Assembly: GCA_963790025.1 (NCBI GenBank)
Contig: CAWBMP010000002.1
Location: 160,001 to 224,000, forward strand
From: Nitrospirota bacterium
Lineage (GTDB): Bacteria > Nitrospirota > Thermodesulfovibrionia > Thermodesulfovibrionales > Dissulfurispiraceae
Reading direction: 5' to 3'
DNA length: 64,000 nucleotides
Both the position numbers and the translations under genes were made by a program. Below are positions 4,468-61,896 of this stretch, piece after piece. Position 1 is the first letter of the stretch, and each line of letters starts with the position of its first letter. Under the pieces are notes generated by a model. It did no database searches. It was not told the origin of the DNA and worked only from the letters and a program-made list of their open reading frames with translations.

Positions 4468-6294
4468 GTGTGCGGAATAATCGGCTATATCGGCAGCAGG
4501 AATGCCATCCCCATAGTGATGGAGGGGCTTAAGCGCCTCGAGTACAGGGGGTACGATTCAGCAGGGATCGCCTTTTTAGAGGATGGCAAGATAAGCGTCA
4601 AGCGTTGCAAAGGAAAGATCAGCGCGCTGGATGCAATAACCTGCGAGATCGCGAAACCGAGCAATCTGGCCATAGGTCATACACGATGGGCCACTCACGG
4701 CAAACCTTCCGATGAAAATGCACATCCGCACCGCTCTGACGGGATAGTAGTCGTCCATAACGGCATAATTGAAAACTACGTGGAACTCAAACATACACTG
4801 CAGGGTGAAGGCTTTATCTTCACCTCCGAAACCGACACCGAGGTCCTCTGCCACCTGATCAACAAGCATGCGGCCAGGGAACCTTTTGAAGAGGCAGTGC
4901 GGAGGGCAATAAAGGAAGTAAAGGGCGCCTATGCATTTGCTGTAATCAATGAAAAGGAACCTGACAAAATCATTGTAGTGAGGAAAGAAAGTCCTCTGGT
5001 AATCGGGCTGGGTGATGGAGAATACTTTTTGGCCTCCGATGTGCCGGCCTTTCTGAATTATTCCAGAGAGGTGATATTCCTTGACAACAATGAAATAGCG
5101 GTGCTCCATAAAGAAGGAGTCACGGTGACGGATTTTGATGGGAAACCTTTGCATAAAAATGTTTCCACGATATCGTGGAACCCCTCGATGGCCGAGAAAG
5201 GCGGATACCGCCACTATATGCTCAAGGAAATATATGAGCAGCCCAGGGCGATCTCCGATACCATACGCGGAAGGATATTCCCTGATAAAGGCGAGGTGGC
5301 TCTGGATGAATTCGGACTGACGCCGGAGGAGATCACCGGTATCGACAAGATATTCATAGTCGCCTGCGGCACCTCCTACCATGCCGGCATGACAGGTAAG
5401 TACATGATCGAAGAACTGGCCAGGATTCCCGTGGAAGTCGATATCGCTTCGGAGTTCCGGTACAGGGACCCCATCATAACCGGCAGCACGTTATTTATCG
5501 CAATCACACAGTCCGGGGAGACCGCAGATACTCTGGCGGCCTCAAGGGAAGTTAAACGGCTGGGGGCCAAAGTATTGAGCATCTGCAATGTGATCGGCAG
5601 CACTGCCTCGCGGGAATCGGATTTTGTCTTCTATACACATTCAGGTCCGGAGATCGGTGTTGCTTCTACCAAGGCCTTCACCACTCAGGTGGTTGCGCTG
5701 TATCTTCTGGCAATCGCGCTAGGCGGCGTAAGAGGCACACTGGAGAAATCAGCGGCCTCGAAGCTGCTTGAGGACCTGCTTCACCTACCCCTGCAAGTAG
5801 AGCAGACGCTTGAAATGGACCCCTCCATAAACACCATAGCCAAAGAGCTTTTCAAGACAAAAGAATTTCTCTTCCTCGGCAGGGGCATAAATTATCCTAT
5901 TGCACTTGAAGGCGCCCTGAAACTAAAAGAGATATCATATATTCATGCTGAAGGGTATGCTGCCGGAGAAATGAAGCACGGTCCGATAGCTCTAATTGAC
6001 GAAGACCTTCCGGTTGTCGTCCTTGCACCCTCCGGAAAGCTTTACGACAAGGTCGTCTCCAATATGGAAGAGGTCAAGAGCAGGGGAGGCACCATAATAG
6101 CAGTCACCTCGGGTCATGGCGAACTGTTGAGGAGACTCGCAAAATACTCAATCTTTATAGAAGAAAGCAACCCTTTTTTGAATACAATTTTTTTGACGGT
6201 CTCGCTGCAGCTCCTTGCCTACCATATCGCTGTATTGAGGGGATGCGACGTGGACCAGCCGAGGAATTTGGCGAAAAGTGTAACGGTGGAATAA
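4468..6294 (+). CDS. glmS: Glutamine-fructose-6-phosphate aminotransferase
   Basis: MCGIIG start (GTG), GHTRWATHG, C-terminal PRNLAKSVTVE. Confidence 0.98.
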   Translation: MCGIIGYIGSRNAIPIVMEGLKRLEYRGYDSAGIAFLEDGKISVKRCKGKISALDAITCEIAKPSNLAIGHTRWATHGKPSDENAHPHRSDGIVVVHNGIIENYVELKHTLQGEGFIFTSETDTEVLCHLINKHAAREPFEEAVRRAIKEVKGAYAFAVINEKEPDKIIVVRKESPLVIGLGDGEYFLASDVPAFLNYSREVIFLDNNEIAVLHKEGVTVTDFDGKPLHKNVSTISWNPSMAEKGGYRHYMLKEIYEQPRAISDTIRGRIFPDKGEVALDEFGLTPEEITGIDKIFIVACGTSYHAGMTGKYMIEELARIPVEVDIASEFRYRDPIITGSTLFIAITQSGETADTLAASREVKRLGAKVLSICNVIGSTASRESDFVFYTHSGPEIGVASTKAFTTQVVALYLLAIALGGVRGTLEKSAASKLLEDLLHLPLQVEQTLEMDPSINTIAKELFKTKEFLFLGRGINYPIALEGALKLKEISYIHAEGYAAGEMKHGPIALIDEDLPVVVLAPSGKLYDKVVSNMEEVKSRGGTIIAVTSGHGELLRRLAKYSIFIEESNPFLNTIFLTVSLQLLAYHIAVLRGCDVDQPRNLAKSVTVE

Positions 6295-6400
6295 CGTACG
6301 GCAAGCCTGGATGCCCGACTAATAACTTCGGGTATGACCTTTATAAACACGGAACGCAGAACGCAGAACGTTATTTATGGTATAATTAGAAGAGTATTGT

Positions 6401-8518
6401 ATGGCAAAAGACGCCTTATTAGAAGAACTCAATACCCAACAAAAAGAAGCTATCCTGCATTCAAAGGGTCCGCTCCTTGTCCTTGCAGGAGCAGGCAGCG
6501 GAAAGACCAGGGTAATCGCGCATAAGTTCGCCTATCTTTTAAAAAAGAAAAAACTTTCTCCCGCATCAATTTTTACCGTCACTTTCACAAATAGGGCAGC
6601 CGATGAGATGAAAGCAAGAATCTGCCAGTGTATCGAAGAGGAAGTCAAAAATGCATGGATAGGTACCTTTCATTCACTGTGCAATAGAATATTGCGAAAA
6701 GAGATAAAGGCCCTCGGCTTCAAGCCTGATTTTACCATCTACGACGAAGATGATGAGTGCAACCTTATACGCCACATCCTAAAAGAGTTCAATATTTACG
6801 AGGCCCTTTATAAAGGAGTGGCTTCAAGAATAAGCATTCTGAAATCATCCCTTATTTCTCCCGAAGAATTCCTGTCGCAGGGGGACGGGTTCAGTTTTGA
6901 CGAAAAGCTCGGGAGGGTCTACCTCAAATATCAGGATGAGTTGAAACGGTGCAATGCCCTCGATTTCGATGATCTGATCATGCTGACCGCCAAATTATTC
7001 AGAGAGAACCCGAAGATACTCGAAAAGTATGCGGACATGTTTCCTTATATTCTTGTGGACGAATTTCAGGACACCAACCACGCTCAATACCGTCTCCTGC
7101 AACTGATGGTGTCGTCGCACAGGAATATCTGCGCTGTTGGAGACGATGATCAGAGCATATGCAAGTTCAGAGGGGCCGATGTCAGCAATCTGCTGAAGTT
7201 CGAAAAAGATTTTCCTGATGCTCAGGTCGTAAGACTCGAGCAGAATTACCGCTCTACACAGAACATCCTTCACGTTTCGAGTTCGGTGATCGCAAAAAAC
7301 GGAAACAGAAAGCCGAAAAGCCTTTGGACGGACAAAGGCCATGGAGAGAAAGTAATCTATTGCAGGCTGACTACGGAGGAGGAAGAGGCAAAATATGTTG
7401 CGAGGACCATAAAAGACCTCTACCTGAAAAACAACTACGACTACGACAGTTTTGCTATCCTCTACCGGGTCAATCCTCAGGCGAGAGCGATCGAGGACGC
7501 GCTCAGGGAAGAAGATATCCCTTACAAAGTGCTCAGCGGGATAAGCTTTTATCACAGGCGGGAAATAAAAGACCTCATTTCCTATATGCGGGTCGTATTA
7601 AACCGCGATGATAATGTCAGCCTGCGGCGTATTATCAATAGCCCTCCGAGAAACATCGGTGCAGCAGCCCTGTCAAAAATTGAGCAGGAAGCGAAAAAGA
7701 ACTCGGTTGGCCTCCTGTCCGCGGCCCAGACTATGCTCAAAGCAAATGTGCTGGCGGCATCCGTTAAAGAGAAATTGAGTGAATTTGTTAAAATCATCGC
7801 TCACCTGTCAACTACGACTTACAAGACCGCTGCGGACATGCTTAAGGATATTGTGGAGTTAACAGGCTATATTACGGACATTGAGGAAGATCGCCTGCAA
7901 AATATAATGGAGTTGATCGCCTATGCCGAAACAATACCGGTAAAGGATTTCGTCGAGAAGACGTCGCTGGCCCATACAACGGGCAATGGCGCGGCCCCGA
8001 AAAAGGCCACTGTGTCGCTTATGACGCTGCACTGCGCGAAAGGGCTGGAATTCCCGGTCGTATTCATTATCGGCATCGAAGAGGGTATCCTTCCTTATTT
8101 CAAGGCCGTGGACGACGAAGCCGAAATGCATGAGGAGCGAAGACTTTTCTATGTCGGCATGACCAGGGCCAAAGACATTCTCTGTCTGAATGGGGTCAAG
8201 AAAAGAAAACTGTATTCGAGGACCCAGGACCAGGAGCCTTCGCGGTTCCTTTGCGATATACCAAAAGATTGCTGTCACTGGGTGGAAAAAACGGTAGTTT
8301 CCAAGATGACTGCGTTGCCGCCCAGACCGGTCAAGCTCTGCGCCAAGAGGACTGCCCTTGTGTATTTGGTGGGAAGCAAGGTAAAACACCCGGCATGGGG
8401 GATCGGGATAGTCCGCGATTGCTGCGGTGACGAAAATGATTTGAAAGTAACGGTTAATTTCCAGAGTGTAGGACTGAAACGTCTTTCCGTCCGGCATGTG
8501 CACCTGGAAAGGGTATAA
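6401..8518 (+). CDS. pcrA: UvrD/PcrA superfamily 1 DNA helicase
   Basis: GAGSGKT, DEFQD, VGDDDQSI, LEQNYRS, KGLEF, EERRLFYVGMTRA, C-terminal Tudor-like domain. Confidence 0.93.
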   Translation: MAKDALLEELNTQQKEAILHSKGPLLVLAGAGSGKTRVIAHKFAYLLKKKKLSPASIFTVTFTNRAADEMKARICQCIEEEVKNAWIGTFHSLCNRILRKEIKALGFKPDFTIYDEDDECNLIRHILKEFNIYEALYKGVASRISILKSSLISPEEFLSQGDGFSFDEKLGRVYLKYQDELKRCNALDFDDLIMLTAKLFRENPKILEKYADMFPYILVDEFQDTNHAQYRLLQLMVSSHRNICAVGDDDQSICKFRGADVSNLLKFEKDFPDAQVVRLEQNYRSTQNILHVSSSVIAKNGNRKPKSLWTDKGHGEKVIYCRLTTEEEEAKYVARTIKDLYLKNNYDYDSFAILYRVNPQARAIEDALREEDIPYKVLSGISFYHRREIKDLISYMRVVLNRDDNVSLRRIINSPPRNIGAAALSKIEQEAKKNSVGLLSAAQTMLKANVLAASVKEKLSEFVKIIAHLSTTTYKTAADMLKDIVELTGYITDIEEDRLQNIMELIAYAETIPVKDFVEKTSLAHTTGNGAAPKKATVSLMTLHCAKGLEFPVVFIIGIEEGILPYFKAVDDEAEMHEERRLFYVGMTRAKDILCLNGVKKRKLYSRTQDQEPSRFLCDIPKDCCHWVEKTVVSKMTALPPRPVKLCAKRTALVYLVGSKVKHPAWGIGIVRDCCGDENDLKVTVNFQSVGLKRLSVRHVHLERV

Positions 8519-8521
8519 AAA

Positions 8522-8809
8522 ATGAAGATAACCGAGGACCAGGCTAAACATATTGTAAAACTCGCGAGGCTCTCTCTCTCTGAAGAAGAGCTGTCAACGT
8601 ATAGCGGGCAACTGAACACGATCATTGAGCATGTTGAACAATTAAACACGCTCGACACCAGCGGAATCGAACCCACCTCGCATGTGCTGCCTATCAACAA
8701 TGTTATGAGAGATGATATGCGGGAGCCATCGCTTTCGAACGAGGAAGCGTTAAAAAACGCCCCTGACCAGGCAGACAAGTTCTACAGGGTCCCGAAGATC
8801 ATCGAATAA
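8522..8809 (+). CDS. gatC: Asp/Glu-tRNA amidotransferase subunit C
   Basis: HIVKLARL, LDTSGIEPTSH, NAP...YRVPKII. Confidence 0.95.
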   Translation: MKITEDQAKHIVKLARLSLSEEELSTYSGQLNTIIEHVEQLNTLDTSGIEPTSHVLPINNVMRDDMREPSLSNEEALKNAPDQADKFYRVPKIIE

Positions 8810-8871
8810 GCATCGTCGGGCGCAAAAAACCAAAACGGAAAAATAAGGCGACAAATAAGGTATAATAAATT

Positions 8872-9219
8872 ATGCTTAGATGTTTTTTAAGATCGAAAAT
8901 ACATAGAGCCAGGATCACGGAAGCGGACCTGGCCTATGAGGGAAGCATTACTATTGACAGGGAAATCATGGACCGTGCCGGAATGCTCCCGTATGAGCAG
9001 GTTATGATAAGCAACCTGAACAACGGAGAGCGGTTTGAAACATATGTAATACCCGGCAAGCCGGGCTCCCGCGAATTCTGCCTGAACGGCCCCACTGCCC
9101 GCAAGGGCATGGTAGGCGATATAATCATCATATTTTCTTACTGCTACCTCGCCGAACAGGAGATTAAAGGGTTCGAACCCACAATCATTAAAATCGACAG
9201 CAACAATAACCCCGTCTGA
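8872..9219 (+). CDS. panD: Aspartate 1-decarboxylase
   Basis: KIHRARIT, YEG/SITID autocleavage site, NGERFETY, LNGPTAR. Confidence 0.96.
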   Translation: MLRCFLRSKIHRARITEADLAYEGSITIDREIMDRAGMLPYEQVMISNLNNGERFETYVIPGKPGSREFCLNGPTARKGMVGDIIIIFSYCYLAEQEIKGFEPTIIKIDSNNNPV

Positions 9220-9240
9220 ATACAAGTCAATAGCGTATTA

Positions 9241-9272
9241 AAAAGGGAGAGAGCGAAATCGCTCTCTCCCTG
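9241..9272. terminator. Intrinsic terminator hairpin between convergent panD and mtrB
   Basis: aaaa-gggagagagcga-aa-tcgctctctccc; T-tract on the minus strand. Confidence 0.8.
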
Positions 9273-9293
9273 CTCACAGGTCAAAACTATTAC

Positions 9294-11456
9294 TTAAAAC
9301 TTATAAGCGGCACTCAGGAAGACTATGCTTGCATTGTAACTCGGGTTTGCATAGGCGCCTGTCAGGTAAGTGTTGCTGGCCGCATTGAAATACTGATAAT
9401 TGGGGTTGGAAAGCGCATAATCGTTGTACTTGAACTGCTCGAATGAAGCCCCGACTGCCATCGTGAATGAGTTCGACAAGGCGTAGCTCAACTTGCACAT
9501 AAGAGAGCTCTTATGGTACGCATCCACGTCGCCCAGGTTGGGGTTGCCGACAGGGCCACTTGCTACGTTCGAGTTCACCCCGCCCACTTGATTGGGAACA
9601 GCGCTAAAGAAGCCGAAATCCTCGGTACCGTCCGAATTTACGTAATCGTACTGCACCCTGAGTGTCAGCTTTTTAGGCACCAGATAGACATCGACCCCTG
9701 CCCCGAATTCATAGGTATTGTCCTTCTGGGACAGGTTCCAGAGGTAGCCGTTGTTGCTGCTGCTGGTATAAAAATCCGAGGAAGTGTTGCAGACGCCGCT
9801 TGCGCTGGTGGTGTCGCAATCATGTAAATTCTGCTTGATATACTGTAAATCAAAATAGGCGTTCAGACGCACTATACCCCCGATCAGGTAATCGCCGTAA
9901 GTTTCCAGTTCATTCGTCGTGGCATTTTGAACGCCCAACAAGACATCCGGATATGTCGACTTCTTGTATTTGTAAGCAATCCCGACATTCAGATTGTCGA
10001 GAGGGGAGGAATCCGCCGCAACCTTGTATGTGTCCCTCCTCTGCGTCGCTGCATCAAAGATGGTGAACTGAGGGTAGTTAATATGTGACGTTGTAGAATC
10101 AATAGCATAAGGAGAACCAATTATAGCCTCCCTCGCCAGATGTTCATAGCCCATCTTCGGTGTCAGAAAATCCAGACCGTTCCACTTCAGTTCAGCGGAA
10201 TATACATTGTCTTTGGTGGAAGGGATATCTGGCCTGATTCTGTCTGTATCGATATAGGAATATCCTGCGTTCAAGCGAAATTGCGCAGGCAGTTTGAACC
10301 CGAAATCAGCGCCGTAGTTGTTCTTTTTGTAGTCAAAAAGAGGGACGACAATAGTAGGGGGGGTATTGCCGGCAATCGTCTGGTATATAGTGTCAGACTT
10401 GTTCGTCGTGCTGTAGTATTTGTAAAACAGCTTCACATCAAGAAACCTGACCGGATTGGAGGTCAGCGAAAAGGCATAATTCTCGACGTCCTTGCGTCCG
10501 TTGAAGGTAGTTGAACTCAAAGTGGTCTGGGCGTTACCGGGCACTGAATTGTTGAAATTAAGAATGGGGCTGAGATTGAAACTGGAACTCTCACGAGAGT
10601 TCGCAAGACTAACATTGAACCTGGTGTTCAGCGGAAGCTGCAATACGCCTTTAAACCCCAGTTTGTAAAAATGGTTGTCGGGTGGAAGCGACATCAGAGA
10701 AGCGGTAGAATTGGATATCGGGCCGGACCCGGCAATCAGCATGGTTTGGTTCGAATTTGTGAAATCGCCGTAGGAGAAAGTAAGCGCCGCAAACAACGGC
10801 TTGGCCCTGTATCCGATCTCACCTATGTAGTTGGTCGTCTCGTATTGGACAGGAGCAGGGATTTCAATCCCGTTCCCGTTACTATAAGGCAGAAGGCCGC
10901 TTCTGTCCTCCCTGGCCGCTGAGAAATCGACATAAAAAGGATTGAGCAAATCAACTTTGAGCCCGCCTCCGTACTGGTTCCTCTGGATAGAGTAATTAAA
11001 ACTGTTCCAGGTCGACGGATTGGTATTCGCAGGTAAATGCGAAGCGTTGAGCGTAGTTGTAAGCGAGTTGCCGCCCACGCCGGAATAAGGTGTCAGGGCG
11101 CCGAAAGTCGTATTATGCACAATCGAATTTTCGAAAGCGTTGAATTTGAATTTCCCGTACATCCCGGTGTCAAGGTTATAGCTTTGCGTATTATAGCCCA
11201 TATCAGAGGACCTGAACTTCAGGAAAAAGTCATCGCTGTCATAGCCCAGCCTGATGTTGTCGTAAAAGCCGCCCTGATTCACCATATCTCTGTATTCGCT
11301 GAATTTCGCCTTGCTGCCGTTTACATCAACAACCTCGGCAGTACCGCCTATCTCTCCATAAAATGTCCCGCCTGATCCGGTAGCATCGGCCGAAAACGCA
11401 CTGGCAAATGGCAGGAGGACAAATGCTGCTGCTAATGTCATTATTCTGAATTTCAT
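9294..11456 (-). CDS. mtrB: MtrB/PioB family outer-membrane beta-barrel porin
   Basis: Signal peptide, KFSEYRD motif, about 720 aa of amphipathic strands, C-terminal YKF; directly downstream of a decaheme cytochrome. Confidence 0.88.
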   Translation of the reverse strand: MKFRIMTLAAAFVLLPFASAFSADATGSGGTFYGEIGGTAEVVDVNGSKAKFSEYRDMVNQGGFYDNIRLGYDSDDFFLKFRSSDMGYNTQSYNLDTGMYGKFKFNAFENSIVHNTTFGALTPYSGVGGNSLTTTLNASHLPANTNPSTWNSFNYSIQRNQYGGGLKVDLLNPFYVDFSAAREDRSGLLPYSNGNGIEIPAPVQYETTNYIGEIGYRAKPLFAALTFSYGDFTNSNQTMLIAGSGPISNSTASLMSLPPDNHFYKLGFKGVLQLPLNTRFNVSLANSRESSSFNLSPILNFNNSVPGNAQTTLSSTTFNGRKDVENYAFSLTSNPVRFLDVKLFYKYYSTTNKSDTIYQTIAGNTPPTIVVPLFDYKKNNYGADFGFKLPAQFRLNAGYSYIDTDRIRPDIPSTKDNVYSAELKWNGLDFLTPKMGYEHLAREAIIGSPYAIDSTTSHINYPQFTIFDAATQRRDTYKVAADSSPLDNLNVGIAYKYKKSTYPDVLLGVQNATTNELETYGDYLIGGIVRLNAYFDLQYIKQNLHDCDTTSASGVCNTSSDFYTSSSNNGYLWNLSQKDNTYEFGAGVDVYLVPKKLTLRVQYDYVNSDGTEDFGFFSAVPNQVGGVNSNVASGPVGNPNLGDVDAYHKSSLMCKLSYALSNSFTMAVGASFEQFKYNDYALSNPNYQYFNAASNTYLTGAYANPSYNASIVFLSAAYKF

Positions 11457-18437: not shown

Positions 18438-19196
18438 ATGTCAAACTGGAAAGATAATGTCTCTTTCGTACTCGTCGAGCCGCGTGAGCCCGCCAATATC
18501 GGCGCATCTGCACGGGCAATGAAAAACATGGGCTTCAAGGGCCTCTGCCTTGTAAAGCCGCCAGAAATCAACGACGAGGCACGGTCGCTTGCCCATAACG
18601 CCCTTGATGTCCTGGAAGGGGCAAGGCATTATGCCTGTCTTACTGATGCGCTTGACGATAAATCGCTTGTTGTCGCCGTAGCACGAAGGACCGGCAAGAA
18701 GCGAGGGTTAATCCTCGGACCGGACGAGACCGCGCAAAGAGTGTATGAAATTGCCTCCCATAATAAAGTGGCGCTTCTCTTCGGCAGGGAGGACAGGGGG
18801 TTGTATAACGAAGAGGTCAATGAGTGCGGCCTGCTCCTGACCATTCCTGCAAACAAGGAGCACCCCTCTTTAAACCTCTCCCACGCCATAATGGTTGTGG
18901 CCTATGCCCTTTCGAGGGTCCAATACAGAAAAGATCTTGTCCAAGCCGTGCCGGTGAAATCAAGGCGCGGGCAGAGCGGCCTTATCACCCACGGAGAACT
19001 TTCCGCGCTTTATGAGCGGATGGCAAACATCATCACGCTGCTCGAATACATCCCCCGGGGGGACAGAAACCTGAAGAAGCAAATAATGGATAACTTAAAG
19101 CATTTTATCGGCAGGGCGGGACTCAACGACTGGGAGATGAAAATGCTCCACGGCTTTTGCTCGCAGATAGAGCGCAAGTTGGGGAAAGGTGAGTGA
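18438..19196 (+). CDS. trmJ: TrmJ/LasT family SPOUT RNA methyltransferase
   Basis: VLVEP...NIGASARAMKNMG, LFGREDRGL, SLNLSHA. Confidence 0.88.
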   Translation: MSNWKDNVSFVLVEPREPANIGASARAMKNMGFKGLCLVKPPEINDEARSLAHNALDVLEGARHYACLTDALDDKSLVVAVARRTGKKRGLILGPDETAQRVYEIASHNKVALLFGREDRGLYNEEVNECGLLLTIPANKEHPSLNLSHAIMVVAYALSRVQYRKDLVQAVPVKSRRGQSGLITHGELSALYERMANIITLLEYIPRGDRNLKKQIMDNLKHFIGRAGLNDWEMKMLHGFCSQIERKLGKGE

Positions 19197-19201
19197 AGTT
19201 G

Positions 19202-19294
19202 TGTTCACGAAAAATAAAGTTGGTAACTGAAAAATAAAGTCGGTAATTAGAAAATAGAGTTGGTAATTGAAAAATAAAGTCGGCAACTGAAAAA
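19202..19294. mobile_element. Tn7-like transposon end: TGT terminus plus four tandem 20-bp putative TnsB-binding sites
   Basis: TGTTCACG, then aaaataaagttggtaactga / aaaataaagtcggtaattag / aaaatagagttggtaattga / aaaataaagtcggcaactga (19211-19290); marks the core-to-accessory boundary. Confidence 0.7.
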
Positions 19295-19431
19295 CTTCCT
19301 GTATTTACCGGTATTAGCTAATTCAGTAAATTAATCAAGTTGACCAATTTAGTAATATCGTTAAAGTACTATTAAGTGTGGAGTCTGTTATCGGAAGAAA
19401 AATACATTATCGAGCCGTAACAGATGTTTCT

Positions 19432-20130
19432 GTAGAGTAGAGAGCTGGCGTAGTAGTCGGAGACCCTATCTCCAGCTCCCCCTCGTCGAACCGGACGGTC
19501 GCTTTTCGCGAATACGGTTCTCCAATCATCTTCTTCCAGAGGCTTTCGCTCTCGCTTGGCCTTCTGGTATAGCTTCCACTAGAAATTCCGGAACTTCTGG
19601 AGTTTATAGCGTTACCGCAATCTCCTTTCCTTTTTTCCTTCAGAAGCGCGATGAAGGCATTGCCCCTTCCCTCTCCCAAAGTTATGTTGTCTTTGAGATG
19701 CAAACGGTACAATATGAGCAACTCCGATTCCCTTGCCGACCCAGTGAAACTTCGTTACCTTATATCCACCAGTTGCTGCTCTCGCAGCATCGTCAAGGGT
19801 CTCCCGTGTTCATTGTCGTATGACTTCCCCTGCGTGTCACCCCTGACACCCCGGGAGTCCATCTATCGGTTACGGTAGTTTTTGTCAGGATAGATGCTAC
19901 GGCCTTCCCCTTTCTGTGACAGGGTCGGCAACTCCGTCTCGTGTTTCGAGGCTACATCTGGGTTCGCTTGCGCTGCAACCCGCAGGTTTGCTCAACTCCC
20001 TTTAGGAGCCTTTGTCAGGAAACTTAGTGCTTCAGGTTACCCTTTACACCTCCCTCAAGCTACGTGGGCGAGCTACCAAACTCCCACGATCGGACTTTAA
20101 CCGATAAGTCATACGTTTTACACGGCATAC
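19432..20130 (-). ncRNA. ORF-less group II intron (699 nt) with internally deleted RT ORF
   Basis: Minus strand: 5' GTATG; domain V gagaaccgtattcgcgaaaagcgaccgtccggttc; domain VI ending ctactctAC; EBS1 loop cacagaaa (19911-19918) is complementary to the 5' exon end tttctgtg (20131-20138). Confidence 0.9.
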
Positions 20131-20396
20131 CACAGAAAAACGCACAGCAGTCATGCCGCCAGGGGCTGCATGTTTCAAATGGAATCCATTTTATTGTAGT
20201 CCCCTCCTCAGAGAGGGTTAGGGGTGGGTTTAGGCCGTGGTCGTATTGTCGTCACTGCGAGCGAAGCTTGGCAATCTCGTCTTTTCCCGATCTCTAGATT
20301 CACGAAATCAAGCCTGACCCGATTTGCTGCATCTATTTGCTCTGACTTACAGACTGCAAGATAGGCAAACTCAATATGGACCCCGAATTACTAATT

Positions 20397-21869
20397 TCAC
20401 CTGGAGTAAAAACTAGGTTTAGGAAAGCCACCCCGGACAACAACAACTACAATTACAATTGGGGACTGTCCGGTCTGATGAACAAAGACCTCAATATCGT
20501 CTTCTACAACACCAACTGGTGCAGATTTCGGTGAGGCTTCGAGTACGGACAACACGCCAACTCGCTTCCCCAGCCCGATTGCATAAGCTGCTGTCTGATC
20601 AAAAAATTTAGAGAGATCCTTAGGAAACAGAACTTTGCTGTTCTCGACTTTCAATTCGATCGGGATATCCCGGAATGTGAGATCAGTGATCCCACCTGCT
20701 GCTTCGGGGTGACCTTGCAAGTGCTCACCAATATCACACCGGTTTCGAAGCATCTCAGTGGCTTTGTTTTGGAATTGCGATTCTGACGTACCAGCCTCGA
20801 ACAAGCCGCCTTTCAAAGCTTGTGCAGCGATGTTGCCCAACCCACCAAGTACTATCATTGTGTTGGCAACATCATCTGAATGCAAACCGGGGAAGCTTCT
20901 CAACTTGTCGCGAACGCTGAGGAGATGTCTATCAACATTTGAAAACCCAGTCAAAGGGTTTTTAGTAACATCACATCCCTCCAAGAGTAGACGGCGATGC
21001 CCTACAATTGCAACATCCTGGCAATTACTCGTGTCGTCGAATTCAGCTGCGTAAAGGAATTCGTATGGCCTTGAGCCGAACGAATGAGCCACCTCCAGAA
21101 CTGCCCGACCGGTGCCAGTAAGAAAGAAAGGGCCATCACCTTCGGGTTTCTCGAACTTGAAACTGGGCAACCAATCCCGCTCGCGTATGTCGATCGTTAC
21201 AGGTGTTAACGAGAGGACACTGGCACCTGTGGGCCAATTTGAAACCCTGACTTCTATCGTAAGGTCGTAAGACATCCCCGGCTTAAGATAGTTCCAGTGT
21301 TTAGCCGGCTCGCCGTCGATATCAAACTTCAAGAACGCTACGGTCGTTTCGGTTTTCTCAGTCTCTGCTGAACTTCCGTTGGAGACAGGAACGCGGAACC
21401 CTCCAAAACCTCGATCCCGAAGATTGGCGAACAAAAGAAGGGGCAGGGTCCATCGTTTCAACTGATCCTGTATGAGGGTCAATTCGTCCACGTTCTTGAG
21501 ACCTTCGACTTGATCCAGAAACGCGTTCAGCCGCTCATCAGCAGCGAAACTCAAAGACTTGTCAAGCTCTGACGCCTTTAGCTTCGCCGAACTCAAGAAC
21601 CTTTGAGCATCTGGTTCAGCATTGCGTACGGCATGCTTCCACTCAGCCAAGAGCACAAAGATGGCAATGGCCCTGTGATATGAGCGGTACTGATCCTCGA
21701 CATCACCTTGACCGATCTCAGAGATTGTTGCTTCAAGCTCCAAACAGGCTCTTTTTAGGCGCTCAAGGTCATGCGGCGAAGGCTTCAGAGCCCCCGCAAG
21801 TGTTGCAGCAACCTCAATCCTCGAAGAAAAAGCTCGGTGGAAAATCTCGAAGTTTGGCTCGTTTCTCAT
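20397..21869 (-). CDS. Hypothetical protein with a C-terminal PD-(D/E)XK nuclease-like domain
   Basis: ESQFQ...GGITDL...IELK...QTAAY motif arrangement; 490 aa. Confidence 0.65.
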   Translation of the reverse strand: MRNEPNFEIFHRAFSSRIEVAATLAGALKPSPHDLERLKRACLELEATISEIGQGDVEDQYRSYHRAIAIFVLLAEWKHAVRNAEPDAQRFLSSAKLKASELDKSLSFAADERLNAFLDQVEGLKNVDELTLIQDQLKRWTLPLLLFANLRDRGFGGFRVPVSNGSSAETEKTETTVAFLKFDIDGEPAKHWNYLKPGMSYDLTIEVRVSNWPTGASVLSLTPVTIDIRERDWLPSFKFEKPEGDGPFFLTGTGRAVLEVAHSFGSRPYEFLYAAEFDDTSNCQDVAIVGHRRLLLEGCDVTKNPLTGFSNVDRHLLSVRDKLRSFPGLHSDDVANTMIVLGGLGNIAAQALKGGLFEAGTSESQFQNKATEMLRNRCDIGEHLQGHPEAAGGITDLTFRDIPIELKVENSKVLFPKDLSKFFDQTAAYAIGLGKRVGVLSVLEASPKSAPVGVVEDDIEVFVHQTGQSPIVIVVVVVRGGFPKPSFYSR

Positions 21870-24381
21870 TTTCTTTCTCCAAGTCAGACAGAAGGCTGCT
21901 CCATTTTTCGATCAACTCGACAAACGCCCCTCCGCCTCCTATTGTGTGTTCAATCTCGGAAGCCGTCGCGACTAAAGCGGTTTCAAGTCGCCACTGTTCA
22001 TTTCGATCTTCTACTGGGATGCTTGCCATCAGTTCCCTAAAACAAGTGCTTGCAGCTGCATGGTTTCCTGCCTTAGTCAAGGCGGCAGCATAAAGAAGCG
22101 CTTCAACAAAGCCTTCTGGCCTGAATGGCCGGAGTGCTTCGAATGCCTTTTTAATTTCGTCTATACAGTTTTGAAGCTCATTGTGTGGGGCTCTTAAGAT
22201 CGCGGACACGCAGTCGTCGGTAGAAATGGAGCGCGTATAGTCATCTTGAATTGACTTCAGCGCCACTTTGGCAAAGCCAGGAACCTCCCCAAAGCCATAG
22301 TGCAACCGATCAACAGCATGGTAAAGGGCACTTCCCTCCAAGCTGAGCAAGATACCCGAGAGCAGCAGGCCGAGTTTCCCTTTTCTTTCTTCAGGCGAAA
22401 GGCAGAGAAACGCAAATGCGTCGATACAGTCGACAACGAAGTCCTCTTGCTTGCTTTGTTGGGAGTAGTAAACAATCAGGCTCCAGAGCCCGTGCTTAAT
22501 AAGGCTTCGTTTCTCTTTAGGAAATGATCTACGCCTCAGAGAATGAACGGCCGACCGATGAACAATGACATATGGGTCAGTAAGCAAGACGGAAAATGCT
22601 TCAAAGAACAGATCGGGAAAGTTCTTCACCAAGTCGTATGGGACATCCCCCCATGCTTGTACAGCGCTGGCACGGATCAATGTGCTCTCGTCCATAAGTG
22701 CACGATACCAATCGGAGAGCACTATCGTTAGGCTTTCGACCCCGGCCAACAATTTTGAAACATGAACTATCATGTTTCCACGCATTTGCGTTTGGTTCTC
22801 GGGCAACTTCCGATACAGTTCTAGGAGCTGTTCAATTCCTTCACGTCCCTTGGATTTTGCTCCAACTGCAGCCCATTCGATCAGTGCGCTCTGCAAGCCG
22901 TCAATTGCTCCGCGTTTGTTCGTTTTATCCATATGAGCGAGCACATCGCCAGTCAGTTCGAGAGAGCGCTCTGTATCTACTTGCTCATACTTCTCGCTAA
23001 GTGTAGCCGCTGCACCGATCAGATTATCAAAATGCTCGACTGCGAGCTGAGCAAACTCGTCCCAAGAATGTCTGAAGAACTGTCCCGCTTCATCCATGCC
23101 GTTCTCTGGGCTTTCTATGGCAGCCCAAAGCAATCTTCTAAATCCTATCCTTTGTGCTGTTCCTATCTGTGCCTTTTCCCGATAGCTGTGTTTCAGCACT
23201 GATCTATAGGTTCTATTAGCTTCTTCTCTTCCGGTATTGTCGTTGTCAGCAAGGAACGATTGGATGATCTTGTCCGTTTCCTCTGGAAAACGTTCGAGGC
23301 ACTTCGAGGCCGCTTCCCGAAGATAGTAGAGTACGCTGCTATCCCGGCGCACTCTCGGAAGCAGAAATCGCCTGCGCATAAGCTTGGCGAAGATACTTTC
23401 AGTATGTCTTGAAAGCAGCTCGTCACTATCCGTCGCAAGTATGATCTCAACGGCATCCCCAATTTTTTCTGGGTTCGCGTTACTTAGAAGTGCGTCGACC
23501 TCCGCACAAATCTGAGCACGCCTTTTCTGGAAGAGCGCGTGAATTGGCGCAGCATCAAGCCTTATTGGTTCGCTTCCTCCAAAATGCACTCCGGGTGGCG
23601 GTCCTAAGGCCATTGACACAAAGGGACGTAAAACCTTTTTCAAGTCGTCTTGGGAAAGCTTTTCCGCCCCCGACAAAACCAGGTCGATAGCCGCTGAAGA
23701 TTTCTCATAGCTGTTCACCAAGCTCACCGCCACTGAAAGCTTTTCTTCTGATTCTAACGGTGCCCTGAGTAATGCCTTCGCGGCAGGTCTAGAATACGGC
23801 AAGTTCTCGTGTAGCACTGCTGGCAAGAGATGTTCGATCACCTTTCTGGTAAATGTCTCAGGAGCAAGGTTTGCGAGTTGCTCCAGACGCGGATCGTTCC
23901 TTTCTATATCTTCCTGATCAAGCTCATCCAACAGATCGAAAACGAAGGTTTCCTCTAGAGAGAGTTCGTAGCGAAGTTTCGCCCGTTCTTGGCGCCTGTC
24001 GGTCTGCTTCTGCTTTCTCTCCCTTTCTTCTTCTTCGCGCGCTTCCTTTAGGTTTTCGGCAGCTTGTTCCCTCGGGTCAACAAAACTCATAATATTAGGA
24101 AATCCTACGGGAACCCGTTCCTCACAACCCTTGCAGTTGTTCTGGTAGAAGTCATAAGCTGCATCTTCCAGCAGCCAACAATACATGGAGTTTTTCTTAG
24201 AGAATTTGCACTGGACGCCCATGTGCCCAATTGGGAGACCAGTTGCAGCTTCAATCATTCCCCTTCCATGAGACCTTACGAACTCGGCATGGAAACACCA
24301 ATTTCTTAGAAGCTTTGTTGTTCGGAGATTGCGCTGGCCTGCTTCTATTGCATTTTTATAGCTGTCTTCAAAATCATCCAT
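21814..24381 (-). CDS. Large helical-repeat (HEAT-like) protein with an N-terminal Cys-rich domain
   Basis: 855 aa; WCFH...QC...C...CKGC cluster, coiled coil, HEAT-like LMDESTLIRASAV and LTDPYVIVHRSAV units. Confidence 0.65.
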   Translation of the reverse strand: MDDFEDSYKNAIEAGQRNLRTTKLLRNWCFHAEFVRSHGRGMIEAATGLPIGHMGVQCKFSKKNSMYCWLLEDAAYDFYQNNCKGCEERVPVGFPNIMSFVDPREQAAENLKEAREEEERERKQKQTDRRQERAKLRYELSLEETFVFDLLDELDQEDIERNDPRLEQLANLAPETFTRKVIEHLLPAVLHENLPYSRPAAKALLRAPLESEEKLSVAVSLVNSYEKSSAAIDLVLSGAEKLSQDDLKKVLRPFVSMALGPPPGVHFGGSEPIRLDAAPIHALFQKRRAQICAEVDALLSNANPEKIGDAVEIILATDSDELLSRHTESIFAKLMRRRFLLPRVRRDSSVLYYLREAASKCLERFPEETDKIIQSFLADNDNTGREEANRTYRSVLKHSYREKAQIGTAQRIGFRRLLWAAIESPENGMDEAGQFFRHSWDEFAQLAVEHFDNLIGAAATLSEKYEQVDTERSLELTGDVLAHMDKTNKRGAIDGLQSALIEWAAVGAKSKGREGIEQLLELYRKLPENQTQMRGNMIVHVSKLLAGVESLTIVLSDWYRALMDESTLIRASAVQAWGDVPYDLVKNFPDLFFEAFSVLLTDPYVIVHRSAVHSLRRRSFPKEKRSLIKHGLWSLIVYYSQQSKQEDFVVDCIDAFAFLCLSPEERKGKLGLLLSGILLSLEGSALYHAVDRLHYGFGEVPGFAKVALKSIQDDYTRSISTDDCVSAILRAPHNELQNCIDEIKKAFEALRPFRPEGFVEALLYAAALTKAGNHAAASTCFRELMASIPVEDRNEQWRLETALVATASEIEHTIGGGGAFVELIEKWSSLLSDLEKENEKRAKLRDFPPSFFFED

Positions 24382-25196: not shown

Positions 25197-26243
25197 GTGT
25201 ATTTTTTCTCATGCCACCAAGAGGAGGTGTTGGACCGGCCGGGGAAAGCGCCAATAATTTATGGAAGAAGCAAAAAGGTAGATAAAGCAATAACTGCGGT
25301 AAAGAATATTTTCTTAAAGTTTGGTTGGGAAGGAGATGGGAAAATACGTGTAATTTGGATCCCACCTTTTTTGGATCAATCTAGTGATCCCAATTATGGC
25401 TCCTTTATTTGGCATGTTAAACAATACAATAACGGAACTTCTTTCTTAGGTTTTAAGGAACCTATTCAATCAGCAAGATTATTAGATCAGAATGTGGTTT
25501 TTAAGCAGAATGATAGAGATGTAAAACCCATAAACCTAATATACACGGAAGAAAAAAACTTATTACTGCAACTCAAAAAAAAGAAAAAACTGCTACAAGA
25601 AGTGATAGGGCATGTAGAATCAAATATTTTGAGTAGCGAATTAATAAACTCGACATTGGGTTATATTCAAAATGACGTGATGTCAGAATTCAACGATTTC
25701 ATTGATGAGTGTTATTTGCAGTATTTGGTACACGTCTTAAGCGATAATAATCCTGACTCTATAAAGCTTAAATCTATAAATGTAAGAATTGGCCTTGATC
25801 ACATTTCGGAACAACCTAGCTTTGGAATAGGAGATAATTGGCTAACAATACGTGAAATTATTAGTAACATTTGGAGGGATTTCAAATTCTTGTCGTTTAA
25901 AGACAAGTTTAAGGAGATAATGAACTGTATAGATTTTAAGTATGATGCAAAACAAATAGCAGATATTAATAAACATGTAGTCATAAGGAACTGCATTCAA
26001 CATCATCAATGGGCATTAGCCGCTGATGTCTTAAAAACAATAGGGTTAAATAAAATAGAAATATTGAATGAAAAAGGAAAATATACAACAATCCAAAAAT
26101 GGAACAAAATTGTGCTGACATCTCAAGAAGTTAGCTCTATAATTGATAACCTCGCCCATTTCTGTGTTGAATATGTAAAGCATGTAAAACATAGAATTAA
26201 AACCAGACATTTTTTGCACAACTTTAAAAAAGAAGATTATTAA
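25197..26243 (+). CDS. AT-rich protein: N-terminal GWEGDG/WIPPF/WHVKQ domain fused to a HEPN-like domain (start uncertain)
   Basis: RNCIQH matches the HEPN Rx4H motif in a helical C-terminal half; visibly AT-rich DNA. Confidence 0.6.
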   Translation: MYFFSCHQEEVLDRPGKAPIIYGRSKKVDKAITAVKNIFLKFGWEGDGKIRVIWIPPFLDQSSDPNYGSFIWHVKQYNNGTSFLGFKEPIQSARLLDQNVVFKQNDRDVKPINLIYTEEKNLLLQLKKKKKLLQEVIGHVESNILSSELINSTLGYIQNDVMSEFNDFIDECYLQYLVHVLSDNNPDSIKLKSINVRIGLDHISEQPSFGIGDNWLTIREIISNIWRDFKFLSFKDKFKEIMNCIDFKYDAKQIADINKHVVIRNCIQHHQWALAADVLKTIGLNKIEILNEKGKYTTIQKWNKIVLTSQEVSSIIDNLAHFCVEYVKHVKHRIKTRHFLHNFKKEDY

Positions 26244-27727: not shown

Positions 27728-27928
27728 ATGGTTAACGGAACAGTAAAGTGGTTCAATGACTCAAGAGGCTTCGGCTTTATTACAGGCGACGACGGAGGGG
27801 ATGTTTTTGTCCACCACTCGTCGATCCAGGGTGAGGGATTCAAGTCCCTTGCCGAGGGTGACAGGATCAGCTTTGATACGGAAAAAGGCCCTAAGGGTCC
27901 CAAGGCGATCACGGTAATTAAACAGTAA
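27728..27928 (+). CDS. cspA: Cold-shock protein
   Basis: GTVKWFN, GFGFI (RNP1), VFVH (RNP2), GPKGPKA; AAGGAGGT RBS. Confidence 0.96.
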
Positions 27929-29203: not shown

Positions 29204-29729
29204 ATTTCCCTGTTAGAATAAGGAGTGATTATGTCAGATTCCGCAACTAAGAAGCCAAAGATTCAGTCGCTTTTATCGGAACAGATTAAGCTAAACCCTT
29301 TGCAGTTTGTGCAAGGGCTTCGGAGAAAATATTCTTTTGGTCTGCCTGCATCGTGCCACTATCGTAGACTGGTTGCCGAGCATCTGGGTGCCAAGCTTAA
29401 TGCCAAGTTTGATGTGCCACAGGATTTTATAACGGCATATAAGAAAGTCTCCGGGGGTAAATAATAGCGCCGTATTTCCAGTAGAAGCGGGTGAAGTCGA
29501 GAAGCGCCAGTTGGACCCCTCTGAAATTTATCTGATTAGCATTGGCGGAAAGATTGCCGATAACATTCACCTGTCACTGTATTGAGGCGTTATGTAACGG
29601 AAATTAAGTGTGCAGCACTGAAGGAATATCTTGAGCCGTTACTATGGAAGGCAGTCACGTAATCTTAAGCACTGCAAATTGTCATCCACATTTCACTCCT
29701 CAAAGGAGGATTCCATACAGGAGAAAATA

Positions 29730-30821
29730 ATGAATAATGCAGATAATGCCATACCGGAGACTCCATCTCCGGAAGAGTGTGCTAACAAGATCTTTGAGAT
29801 CAGCGGCGCCAAGCTTGATTCCGATATCGCTGCGGACCTATGGCAAAAAATATTGCAGCATAAATGGCTCATGTCTGAAAAGCTCAGCCGTGATGTAGGA
29901 TTGAGGACCGCATGTATCGACTTTCTTGAAAACATGGACCAGGCCCTCAGGGAATACATAGACTATAAACGGAAAGATGTTTTAGCCGAAATGGGAGCTC
30001 AAAAGATTAGAGCTGAAATATGGGATACGATATCCGATTCGCAGCCTCCAAAGCAATTGGTACAACGAAGAATTATTCTTCCGCTTAAAGAAGATGGCCT
30101 ATCCAAAAAGCATGGGGTGATTCCTCCTAAAACCATCATCTTCTTTGGACCTCCGGGTACGGGGAAGACTCATTTTGTAAAGGCTATAGCAGGAGTCCTG
30201 TCATGGTGGTACATCGAGATTTTGCCCAGCATGCTTATGGTGGACGGCGTAGAAAGGATAGGCGCTAATTTGCACAACGTAATGGAAAAGGCGCGTACTT
30301 TGGAGGATGTCGTTGTCTTTATAGACGAGTTTGAAGAGATTGCCGCGAGCAGGAATGAAGCAAACCGGATTGACAAGTCCATTACTAACGAATTCCTCAA
30401 ACAGGTTTCTTTGCTGAAAAATCAGGGGAATAAGGTATTATTTATATGTGCGACCAACTATATCCGGCTGTTGGACGCCGCACTGCTTCGACCGGGAAGA
30501 TTTGATTGCATTATTCCTGTCGGCGGGCTGGACGAGGATGGAAGGCGAACTATTTTGGAACAATTCCTGTCCAACCTTAATGCGGAGAACGTCGACCTCA
30601 ATCTCATTGTAAAGATGACAGCACGATTTACGCCGGCTGATATCGAATATCTCTTCCAGCAAGTGGCCCAATTTGCCTTTGAACAGGAGTATGCAAGCAA
30701 ACATAATTATCTTGTTACCACAGATACGTTTGTTGAAATTGTACCGAAAATTAAGCCATCTCTCACCGACGAGATTATTGATGAATTTCAAAAAGACGTT
30801 ATCACATATTCTCGAACATAG
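29730..30821 (+). CDS. AAA+ ATPase (CDC48/FtsH-type domain) with a DUF4032-like N-terminus
   Basis: GPPGTGKT, FIDEFE, ATN...LDAALLRPGRFD; N-terminal W..ILQHKWLMSE...RDVG. Confidence 0.85.
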   Translation: MNNADNAIPETPSPEECANKIFEISGAKLDSDIAADLWQKILQHKWLMSEKLSRDVGLRTACIDFLENMDQALREYIDYKRKDVLAEMGAQKIRAEIWDTISDSQPPKQLVQRRIILPLKEDGLSKKHGVIPPKTIIFFGPPGTGKTHFVKAIAGVLSWWYIEILPSMLMVDGVERIGANLHNVMEKARTLEDVVVFIDEFEEIAASRNEANRIDKSITNEFLKQVSLLKNQGNKVLFICATNYIRLLDAALLRPGRFDCIIPVGGLDEDGRRTILEQFLSNLNAENVDLNLIVKMTARFTPADIEYLFQQVAQFAFEQEYASKHNYLVTTDTFVEIVPKIKPSLTDEIIDEFQKDVITYSRT

Positions 30822-61229: not shown

Positions 61230-61263
61230 TCCGCATCAAGTCGGCAAAAATACGGTGCACCGG

Positions 61264-61896
61264 CTATTTCATCATTTTCTCGTGGTCATGATGCTCCATT
61301 CCCTTCATCATGTCGCCCTTCATCATACCGCAGCCGCATCCCTCGCCGCCCTTCATCATGCCGCCGCACATACCGCCCTCCATCATACCGCCGCCCATCA
61401 TGTGCTTTTCCATCATCTCTTTGAGTTTTGCTCTCTGTTCGGGGGTCAACACTGCCTTGCCTTCCTGAACAGCACTCAGGCGCGCAAGGGTCATGGCCGT
61501 CTTCATGGATTCTATCTCTTTCAGCTTCGATTCCGCTGCTTTCATATCTACGGGATCTTTGCTGATAATATCTTCGAGGTCAACTTCCGCTATCTTCAGT
61601 TCGGCCTTCCTTTTGATCATATCTTTCTTTGTTCTGAGGATTATTCTGTCTATTTGTTCCTTTTGCTTTTGATCGAGACCGAGGTGACTAAGCATCATCC
61701 TGATATGATGTTCGCTCATCATCATACCGCCGCCCATCAGACCACCCATCTTGCCGCACATCATGCCGCCGCCCAGTGGGGGATCGTCCTGCATCCCAAC
61801 ATTCTGTCCCATCGGCTGTGCAACAGCGCCGGTAATGCCGAATCCCATGACCAGTAATAAAATTGCCAAAATCGTTATGTAACGTTTCATCTTCAA
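61264..61896 (-). CDS. Spy/CpxP-family periplasmic protein with Met/Gly/Cys/His-rich tails
   Basis: Signal peptide, LGLDQKQ and VLTPEQ motifs, GGGMM repeats. Confidence 0.85.
   Translation of the reverse strand: MKMKRYITILAILLLVMGFGITGAVAQPMGQNVGMQDDPPLGGGMMCGKMGGLMGGGMMMSEHHIRMMLSHLGLDQKQKEQIDRIILRTKKDMIKRKAELKIAEVDLEDIISKDPVDMKAAESKLKEIESMKTAMTLARLSAVQEGKAVLTPEQRAKLKEMMEKHMMGGGMMEGGMCGGMMKGGEGCGCGMMKGDMMKGMEHHDHEKMMK

Follow-up and report, generated by a model that had tools for sequence, protein, structure and literature searches.

Why does this chromosome pass from core to accessory genes exactly at a row of four short repeats, just behind the stop codon of an RNA methyltransferase gene? 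The stretch analysed here, which we call the window, is 64,000 nucleotides of the genome of a Nitrospirota bacterium of the Dissulfurispiraceae (GenBank assembly GCA_963790025.1, contig CAWBMP010000002.1, positions 160,001 to 224,000 of the forward strand); the assembly consists of 5 contigs, with a completeness of 98.8%, and we denote it G000 and its relatives by further G numbers. A first-pass annotation had proposed a Tn7-like element that targets the 3′ end of the methyltransferase gene, trmJ. We arrive at a similar view: positions 19202-19289 are likely what survives of a Tn7-like cut-and-paste transposon, namely its right end, at an attachment site of the TnsD type, and the 3′ end of trmJ is apparently a recurrently used and so far unlisted attachment site for such elements. 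Our use of 'Tn7-like' draws on end anatomy, targeting behaviour and the duplications seen in relatives, from which we infer the transposase family.

The target gene runs from 18438 to 19196 on the forward strand, with a TGA stop at 19194-19196, and is recognised by Pfam, NCBIfam and its orthologues (in 36 of 41 relatives) as encoding a TrmJ/YjtD-family SpoU RNA methyltransferase. Its product matches Pfam SpoU_methylase (7.9e-26) and exceeds the NCBIfam TIGR00050 'TrmJ/YjtD family' cut-off (200 bits vs 167) while staying below the TrmJ equivalog models of NCBIfam, so 'trmJ' is used here as a family-level name only. Behind the stop follow, all on the forward strand, a single copy of AGTTG (19197-19201), which lies directly before the terminus and is a candidate 5-bp target sequence; the 8-bp transposon terminus TGTTCACG (19202-19209); and four head-to-tail 20-bp repeats (19210-19289, consensus AAAAATAAAGTYGGTAAYTG), predicted to be of the transposase-binding type. 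Both direct reading and repeat finders bear out this layout as it was first described. The same terminal 8-mer also ends the arrays of G001 and G012 and the left end of an element at glmS, L051, that we describe below.

The repeat units are contiguous (19210-19229, 19230-19249, 19250-19269 and 19270-19289; start-to-start spacing 20, 20 and 20), and the array's score of 116 in Tandem Repeats Finder (period 20, 4.3 copies, 81% matches) is the highest in the window. With at most 1 mismatch, the repeat motif occurs genome-wide 5 times in forward orientation, 4 of these being the array, and 0 times in reverse; a control motif read backwards gives 0 forward and 1 reverse match. A position-weight matrix assigns 27-34 bits to the array units and at most 17 bits to all other positions in C2:150,001-300,000, a span reaching ~120 kb downstream of the array.

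The switch from core to accessory genes at this point holds up as well. Gene order upstream of trmJ is common to G002, G003 and G007, the order downstream matches no compared genome, and the break coincides exactly with the array position. A promoter-like TTGACC-16-TAAAGT, pointing into the former element, is indeed present on the forward strand at 19340-19367, yet it is weak: it has 9/12 matches, and 6 comparable sites occur in the 2.2-kb region where 2.2 are expected. The canonical attachment site attTn7 is unoccupied, as had been noted. On the forward strand, glmS (4468-6294; NCBIfam 1.5e-256) and its downstream spacer span 4468-6400, and we regard the site as empty because only 106 bp separate glmS from a pcrA/uvrD-type helicase gene that begins at 6401.

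What is left of the element in this genome is one end. Profile searches for tnsA, tnsB and tniQ with PF09299, PF00665, PF06527 and PF08722 (Mu-transpos_C, rve, TniQ and TnsA_N) returned 0 matches each in G000, with PF05621 not searched, and Mu-transpos_C_2 (PF22483) has no match in the genome either. The first-pass annotation had allowed that tns genes were lost or lay outside the window; the former stands, since they are missing from the whole genome and not merely from the window. The window holds no inverted repeat sites, and no reverse copy of the strict motif exists genome-wide (at most 1 mismatch). No left end was found by weight matrix in C2:150,001-300,000, and neither type-1- and type-2-like inverted site patterns (types defined below) nor a '...CA + AGTTG' junction with adjoining sites appears within 250 kb downstream of the array; reverse-complement sites ending in ...ACA before AGTTG were what the first-pass annotation had proposed to look for. 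A near-match to a ...CGTGAACA+AGTTG junction with adjoining sites is found nowhere in G000. Because tnsA, tnsB and tniQ, an inverted left end and a second AGTTG junction are all missing, we regard 19202-19289 as a solo end. Of the features of the Tn7 family, G000 thus retains the site array and has neither the inverted left end nor the core genes; missing core genes are as expected for a relic, yet they leave the transposase family to be deduced indirectly.

Is this end peculiar to one genome? We read the trmJ 3′ flanks of 25 genomes picked regardless of the motif (19 + 6), and 12 of them carry an array or array relic directly after trmJ. Sorted by site sequence, these arrays fall into three types: type 1, TG(T/A)TCACG followed by AAAATAAAGTNGGTAAC sites, in G000, G001, G012 and G310, with a single site in G313; type 2, with GACAAAAAAGTWTAACAGTAG sites, in G004, G005 and G018; and type 3, TGTCYAAAAAGAATAAAGTCGTRTRCTCAG, in G003, G295 and G009, with a decayed copy in G008. 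The other 13 flanks have no array (G002, G006, G007, G010, G263, G239, G016, G021, G014, G023, G037, G017 and G020), and G263 shows a plain terminator hairpin where arrays sit in others. A two-site motif search over 401 genomes of the phylum gave matches in 10 genomes and added three trmJ-adjoining arrays, in G236, in G013 (four sites) and in G065, which belongs to another family. At the places inspected, which did not include G042, G061 and G505, every strong array stands beside trmJ or in its stack except that of G064, located at a contig end. Stacks occur in three genomes: a type-2 array before a type-1 relic (G004), a type-3 array before a type-2 piece (G295) and a fresh type-1 array before an older one (G236).

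The arrays recur at a fixed offset. As anchor we used ATGCTNCAYGG-N10-CAGAT, encoding MLHGxCSQI, which in the window is ATGCTCCACGGCTTTTGCTCGCAGAT (MLHGFCSQI; 19143-19168, forward strand). In 14 genomes the terminus lies 30-34 bp after this block, mostly at +32 and always in the same orientation: 33 bp in G000; 32 in G001, G012, G310, G313, G018, G295 and G009; 31 in G003 and G008; 34 in G236; and 30-34 in G013, G004 and G005. The array of G065 stands at +36 to +39, next to a (GCT)n run. The stop codon ends at +25 to +31 in the six genomes counted, and the bases between stop and terminus vary. Within the coding sequence, the block is the best-conserved stretch of the 3′ part of trmJ (mean column conservation 0.85 vs 0.66 for the whole gene, 21 genes). 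Its conservation and the fixed offset of the termini make it a candidate recognition sequence that could be read by a TnsD/TniQ-type target selector.

Arrays and host gene have different histories. Between G000 and G310, which belong to different genera, the arrays are 94% identical over the first 48 nt and 91% over the first 68 nt, whereas the identity of trmJ is 59% over the gene and falls to 38% when third codon positions are taken by themselves; we conclude that the arrays arrived horizontally. Past the arrays the sequences are unrelated, save ~60 bp common to G001, G004 and the older copy in G236. This sequence pattern fits repeated horizontal arrival rather than inheritance. Partial arrays (2 sites in G012, 3 in G310, 2 in G236 and 1 each in G313, G008 and G009) always keep the sites nearest the terminus, which suggests erosion from the inside of the element, its outer end being sheltered by nearness to trmJ.

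Two complete elements with these ends and 5-bp duplications demonstrate that such ends transpose, one at trmJ (G236, ATAAT) and one at glmS (L051, GTTTG). In G236, trmJ is followed by ATAAT and by TGATTGCG with two sites; after 13.6 kb come type-2-like sites, inverted and spaced, then ...CCAAATCA and ATAAT, and finally TGATCATG with two sites of the older relic. Its left terminus was placed with help of the duplication itself, and three independent features support it: the terminal CA, the resemblance of TGATTTGG to the left terminus of G313, TGTTTTGG, and the inverted sites inside. The cargo of this element (L103, G236:C5:552000-569500) comprises PAS/kinase genes, a DinB-family gene, a tyrosine recombinase and an IS91-type transposase.

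The second element, L051, was found through an exact 18-mer terminus in a Desulfuromonadales assembly, that is, in another phylum. Behind glmU and glmS (4881-6710) come 19 nt, GTTTG, TGATTAGG with one site at 6744, a sensor-kinase gene and a pair of spaced inverted sites, one at 9921 and the other at 9990; ...CGTGAACA, which ends at 10018, and a second GTTTG complete the series. The whole (6730-10023) measures 3.3 kb with a single sensor-kinase/response-regulator gene as cargo, and it sits ~20 bp past the glmS stop, the canonical attTn7 position. Neither element holds tns genes, and family searches of the whole G236 genome matched only in a different element ~330 kb off.

Two further loci were set aside, and one is reported for itself. 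The inverted end that lies 3.6 kb from trmJ in G313 was not counted as partner in one event, as the flanking 5-mers differ (GAGAG vs GGTTC). In G065 the contig break at the array is not the work of an active transposon, the cause being an unrelated repeat of ~100 bp ending in ...AAACTCCTGT, which is present in three copies (L105 1-99; L112 10133-10246; L113 6-104), cuts the third site of the trmJ array and is probably the end of an insertion sequence (IS). On metagenome contig L088 (4600-4830), a left end with spaced inverted sites, ending in ...TTCTACA, is followed by GTT only before a TGTTCACG right end; two Tn7-like ends thus abut, lacking the 5-bp spacer that one would expect between them, and the 9.3-kb contig has no tns genes.

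How does this compare with Tn7 at attTn7? The ends of Tn7 consist of an 8-bp end sequence and 22-bp TnsB sites, four partly overlapping ones on the right and three spaced ones on the left (as described in passages of PMC9308760 and PMC8649781), and the 8-bp terminus and four close sites at the gene-proximal end in G000 agree with this published right-end layout. In sequence, too, the repeat core probably resembles the sites of Tn7, as the first-pass annotation had claimed. In both cases, insertion falls just past the stop of a conserved gene, with a constant spacing to a conserved coding block. For Tn7, a section of PMC2918618 places the TnsD site on glmS at +23 to +58, with insertion ~25 bp beyond the binding site, ~20 bp behind the glmS stop, at a point that requires no specific sequence; block 19143-19168 lies at +31 to +56 from the AGTTG centre. 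Complete relatives with 5-bp duplications, including one with this end type at glmS itself, extend the likeness. The differences are the target, a TrmJ/YjtD-family gene, and the lack in G000 of tnsABCD and of a left end. Taken together, the fixed-offset recurrence, the at least three array types and the complete G236 element with its duplication uphold the proposal that Tn7-like elements target the trmJ 3′ end.

Several results weigh against this interpretation. In the trmJ flanks of relatives, where the first-pass annotation had suggested looking for tns genes and for an empty allele with a single AGTTG, no genome has an array followed by tns genes (judged from the downstream open reading frames (ORFs) of G001, G004, G005, G009, G012, G018, G236, G310 and G313), no TnsB-type match (~640 aa or longer) lies near trmJ on a trmJ contig in 68 genomes of the family, and the array-free alleles of the genus (G002, G006 and G007) diverge from ~+30, leaving no clean empty site there. 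The well-kept four-site arrays of G000, G001 and G013 run straight into non-tns DNA, unlike the right end of Tn7, behind which comes tnsA. Across 185,579 species genomes the exact 18-mer terminus marks 30 loci, of which 3 are real arrays, all of them tns-less; the other 27 are unrelated single matches with no further site, against a chance expectation of ~17. Over metagenomes the two-site pattern found 1 locus, the tns-less abutment of left and right end on L088. In G000 itself, as we have seen, the 250 kb downstream contain neither a left end nor another AGTTG junction, and no reverse motif exists genome-wide.

Nor did tns-bearing loci provide the missing link. TnsB (PF09299) occurs in 16 of the 68 family genomes and TniQ in 14 of 301 genomes of the order, and, in favour of the proposal, sets of tnsA, tnsB, tnsC and tniQ are present in the same genus and family (G001, G002, G012, G236 and G247). 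Ten loci with tnsB and/or tniQ matches, compared together with two flank loci (the list comprising G001:C59, G002 twice, G012:C110, G236, G247, G010:C43, G263:C1, G065:C80, G003:C2 and G004:C3), have no type-1, type-2 or type-3 site arrays, and because of this no transposase can be linked to the end type. A scan of a viral collection for these ends gave 0 matches. A plasmid match labelled TnsB was dropped as a canonical Tn7 end; it is located in a mercury-resistance transposon, which we take to be of the tniA type.

Apart from the question of the trmJ end, two of these loci contain Tn7-like sets with a 915-919-aa protein (G002, L087, G002:C2:838000-857999; G012, L083, G012:C110). The G002 protein of this class combines TnsA_N, rve and Mu-transpos_C in an apparent TnsA-TnsB fusion, while in that of G012 only rve and Mu-transpos_C were seen. 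In both sets TniB-like and TniQ genes come after the large protein, and a divergent HTH or S24 repressor-like gene precedes it.

It had been stated at the outset that relatives carrying the same repeats with no tns genes or empty allele would speak against a transposon, and as regards tns genes this is, literally, what the relatives show. We judge that view too strict: the arrays vary both in type and in how many there are, form stacks, keep a fixed offset, are conserved far beyond neutral DNA, and have inverted partners and duplications elsewhere. Many relatives are, moreover, fragmented assemblies of tens to hundreds of contigs, and the contigs of G003, G013 and G012 end soon past the array, so that the absence of an element in relatives may sometimes be an assembly effect.

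If the solo-end reading holds, events at the locus could have run as follows. A TnsD/TniQ-type selector would read the conserved block at 19143-19168 near the end of trmJ and direct insertion to a point ~32 bp downstream of it, 5 bp past the stop; because the insertion point lies 5 bp after the stop codon, trmJ would have stayed intact. AGTTG would be the duplicated target, and the 8-bp terminus with its four tandem sites is predicted to serve a TnsB-type transposase. Later deletion may then have removed the transposition genes and the left end. The outer end would have survived because it lies less than 100 bp from trmJ, so that deletions coming in from the element's interior stop short of it. 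The remaining end would be immobile, with no transposase in the cell, and would mark an integration hot spot that now houses an OloA/OloB pair and an ORF-less group II intron.

It is tempting to speculate further that the trmJ 3′ end is a dedicated site largely for non-autonomous Tn7-like cargo elements moved in trans, with solo ends kept because they confer target immunity, although we think this rather unlikely. According to passages of PMC9308760, target immunity is mediated by TnsB sites in target DNA, and part of PMC11014353 describes how, in the laboratory, insertion fell from ~100% to ~2x10^-5 % when an immobile mini-Tn6022 occupied its att site. Retention for immunity would explain why differing arrays are stacked with fresh before eroded ones and why crisp arrays exist without a transposase. 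If true, solo arrays would shield the host from re-insertion of the cognate element and would not be mere debris. The G236 (13.6 kb) and L051 (3.3 kb) elements resemble laboratory mini-Tn7 and the immobile mini-Tn6022 in having both ends and a duplication but no tns genes, and differ from them in being natural; they may have been moved in trans without tns genes of their own, or may have lost these genes afterwards.

Could the repeats be the end of a different kind of transposon? TG...CA termini, 5-bp duplications and more than one transposase site at each end are likewise features of IS21-family elements, Tn5053/Tn402-type TniABQ transposons and Mu-like elements. None of the arrays is followed by tnsA, and in G236 a pair of IstA (PF22483, 1e-15) and IstB (PF01695, 7e-73) sits right beside the older array. 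This neighbour, however, is an element in its own right: its ends (TGGTTTTGATAACC...) are not the array's, it is flanked by a separate duplication (ACGAC), and its insertion point lies 77 bp inside the array. G000 has no PF22483 match. Copies from G236, G310, G012 and G003 define it as a separate IS of 2761 bp (2 copies in G236 and 6 in G310; duplications ACGAC in one copy and TAGCT in another), and we rejected the idea that the arrays are IS21-family ends. A TniABQ-type relative is a possible source of the repeats, but insertion at a fixed distance past a conserved gene, glmS included, is a hallmark of TnsD/TniQ-directed Tn7-like elements. We therefore consider an origin from another multi-repeat DDE element unlikely.

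Alternatively, the repeats could belong to the host, as cis-regulatory or structural DNA downstream of trmJ such as an operator array or a terminator substitute. Arrays at the same place in several genera, conserved far beyond neutral DNA and without a transposase present, might be expected of such a function. Yet the downstream genes differ in every genome, 13 of the 25 flanks are array-free and others have different types or stacks, the arrays erode from inside, and the same end type is found in another phylum at glmS, where it is paired with an inverted end and flanked by a 5-bp duplication, all of which makes a host function very unlikely.

A tyrosine-recombinase island, with the repeats as arm-type sites of attL or attR, is to our mind a faint prospect. 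What speaks for it is that G310 and G003 share the same tandem tyrosine-recombinase pair (Phage_integrase 1e-37 and 7e-34; 86% nucleotide identity over ~1 kb) ~200 bp inside their arrays. The arrays beside this shared pair differ, however, that of G310 belonging to type 1 and that of G003 to type 3; the 26 larger window ORFs scanned (18.4-51.6 kb) include no integrase; and 5-bp duplications with TG...CA termini are seen, not a shared att core. The pair (L097 988-2935; L079 10128-11022) is probably a separate mobile module that favours the trmJ spot. Replication iterons of an integrated plasmid or phage, which ~20-bp tandem repeats do resemble and which the first-pass annotation had itself raised as an objection, are next to negligible as an explanation, given the absence of a rep or phage gene nearby and of any Rep family match in those 26 ORFs, the chromosomal site with its recurring fixed offset from trmJ, the inverted partner and duplications elsewhere and the empty scan of the viral collection.

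The preferred reading, a solo Tn7-like end at trmJ, has a precedent at another gene. In Acinetobacter baumannii, remnants of Tn7-like insertions lie downstream of nrdB, a recurrent site (described in part of PMC11014353). As at trmJ, old insertions stand beside a conserved gene and islands grow by repeated insertion together with other mobile elements; in contrast, the trmJ end is still crisp, with terminus and four sites, at another gene, with at least three end types stacked and no tns-bearing copy. Remnant insertions at recurrent sites are thus already known from the nrdB account, whereas a trmJ-family site is apparently new. The attachment genes that the first-pass annotation knew of did not include it, and text searches of the Tn7 literature did not turn up a trmJ-family or RNA-methyltransferase gene as a Tn7-like attachment site. 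By title and abstract, papers that combine Tn7 and trmJ deal with how tRNA is modified in Pseudomonas and Acinetobacter rather than with the targeting of transposons, and the main texts of PMC10293859 and PMC8649781 are without the word 'methyltransferase', while their supplements, outside the search, may list attachment genes.

The 3′ end of TrmJ/YjtD-family methyltransferase genes is accordingly a candidate for an added safe-harbour site of Tn7-like transposons, in a poorly studied lineage, and a selector that reads it would give programmable or site-specific insertion tools a new specificity. When genomes are annotated, solo end arrays that keep a constant offset from a core gene can point to integration hot spots where defence systems collect; at trmJ, the examples are OloA/OloB in G000 and an AAA ATPase and subtilase pair in one relative. 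Two tns-less complete elements and many solo ends also raise the question of whether access to attachment sites is influenced by natural mini-elements and by ends left behind.

Inside the solo end, the first feature is an ORF-less group II intron recognised with Rfam (19433-20145, reverse strand), which may be a later arrival or cargo. This intron of ~710 nt matches RF02005 (D1-D4) at 19839-20098 with 72.6 bits (gathering 49) and RF00029 (D5-D6) at 19432-19522 with 34.5 bits, below the gathering threshold of 40; its 5′ end, GTGCG (20145-20141), comes directly after a stem-loop at 20161-20145. No second copy exists in the G000 genome. Because the intron is ORF-less and single-copy, a maturase must act in trans or the intron is dead.

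Next come two overlapping genes on the reverse strand, both likely island cargo and both without a Pfam match: an OloB-like defence gene (20397-21869; PADLOC OloB 3.6e-56) and an OloA-like one (21814-24381; PADLOC OloA 4.1e-73). They form a predicted two-gene anti-phage system directly inside the solo end. Defence systems are typical cargo of Tn7-like elements (so stated in PMC8649781), and the pair and the intron may have been cargo of the transposon. An AT-rich ORF of 348 aa follows on the forward strand (25197-26243; GC 31-38% vs ~45-51% around) within the non-syntenic stretch, with no match in Pfam, PADLOC or NCBIfam. We dropped cspA (27728-27928) as the right border of the island, as its distance from trmJ is 1.3 kb in G004 but 10 kb in G007, where it is also inverted, and as it is perhaps multi-copy. 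OloA and OloB presumably make up the system named Olokun.

Other observations concern the wider surroundings. In the window, the gene that comes after an IetA-like AAA ATPase gene (29631-30821, forward strand; PADLOC 2.6e-25) encodes a histidine kinase instead of a protease. In G018 an AAA ATPase and an S8 subtilase, an IetAS-like pair, come after trmJ (L042 1356-4263). Further along the window, 61321-61769 contains several tandem repeats of CCGCC-rich units with periods of 12-27, situated in overlapping ORFs of both strands (61255-61896).

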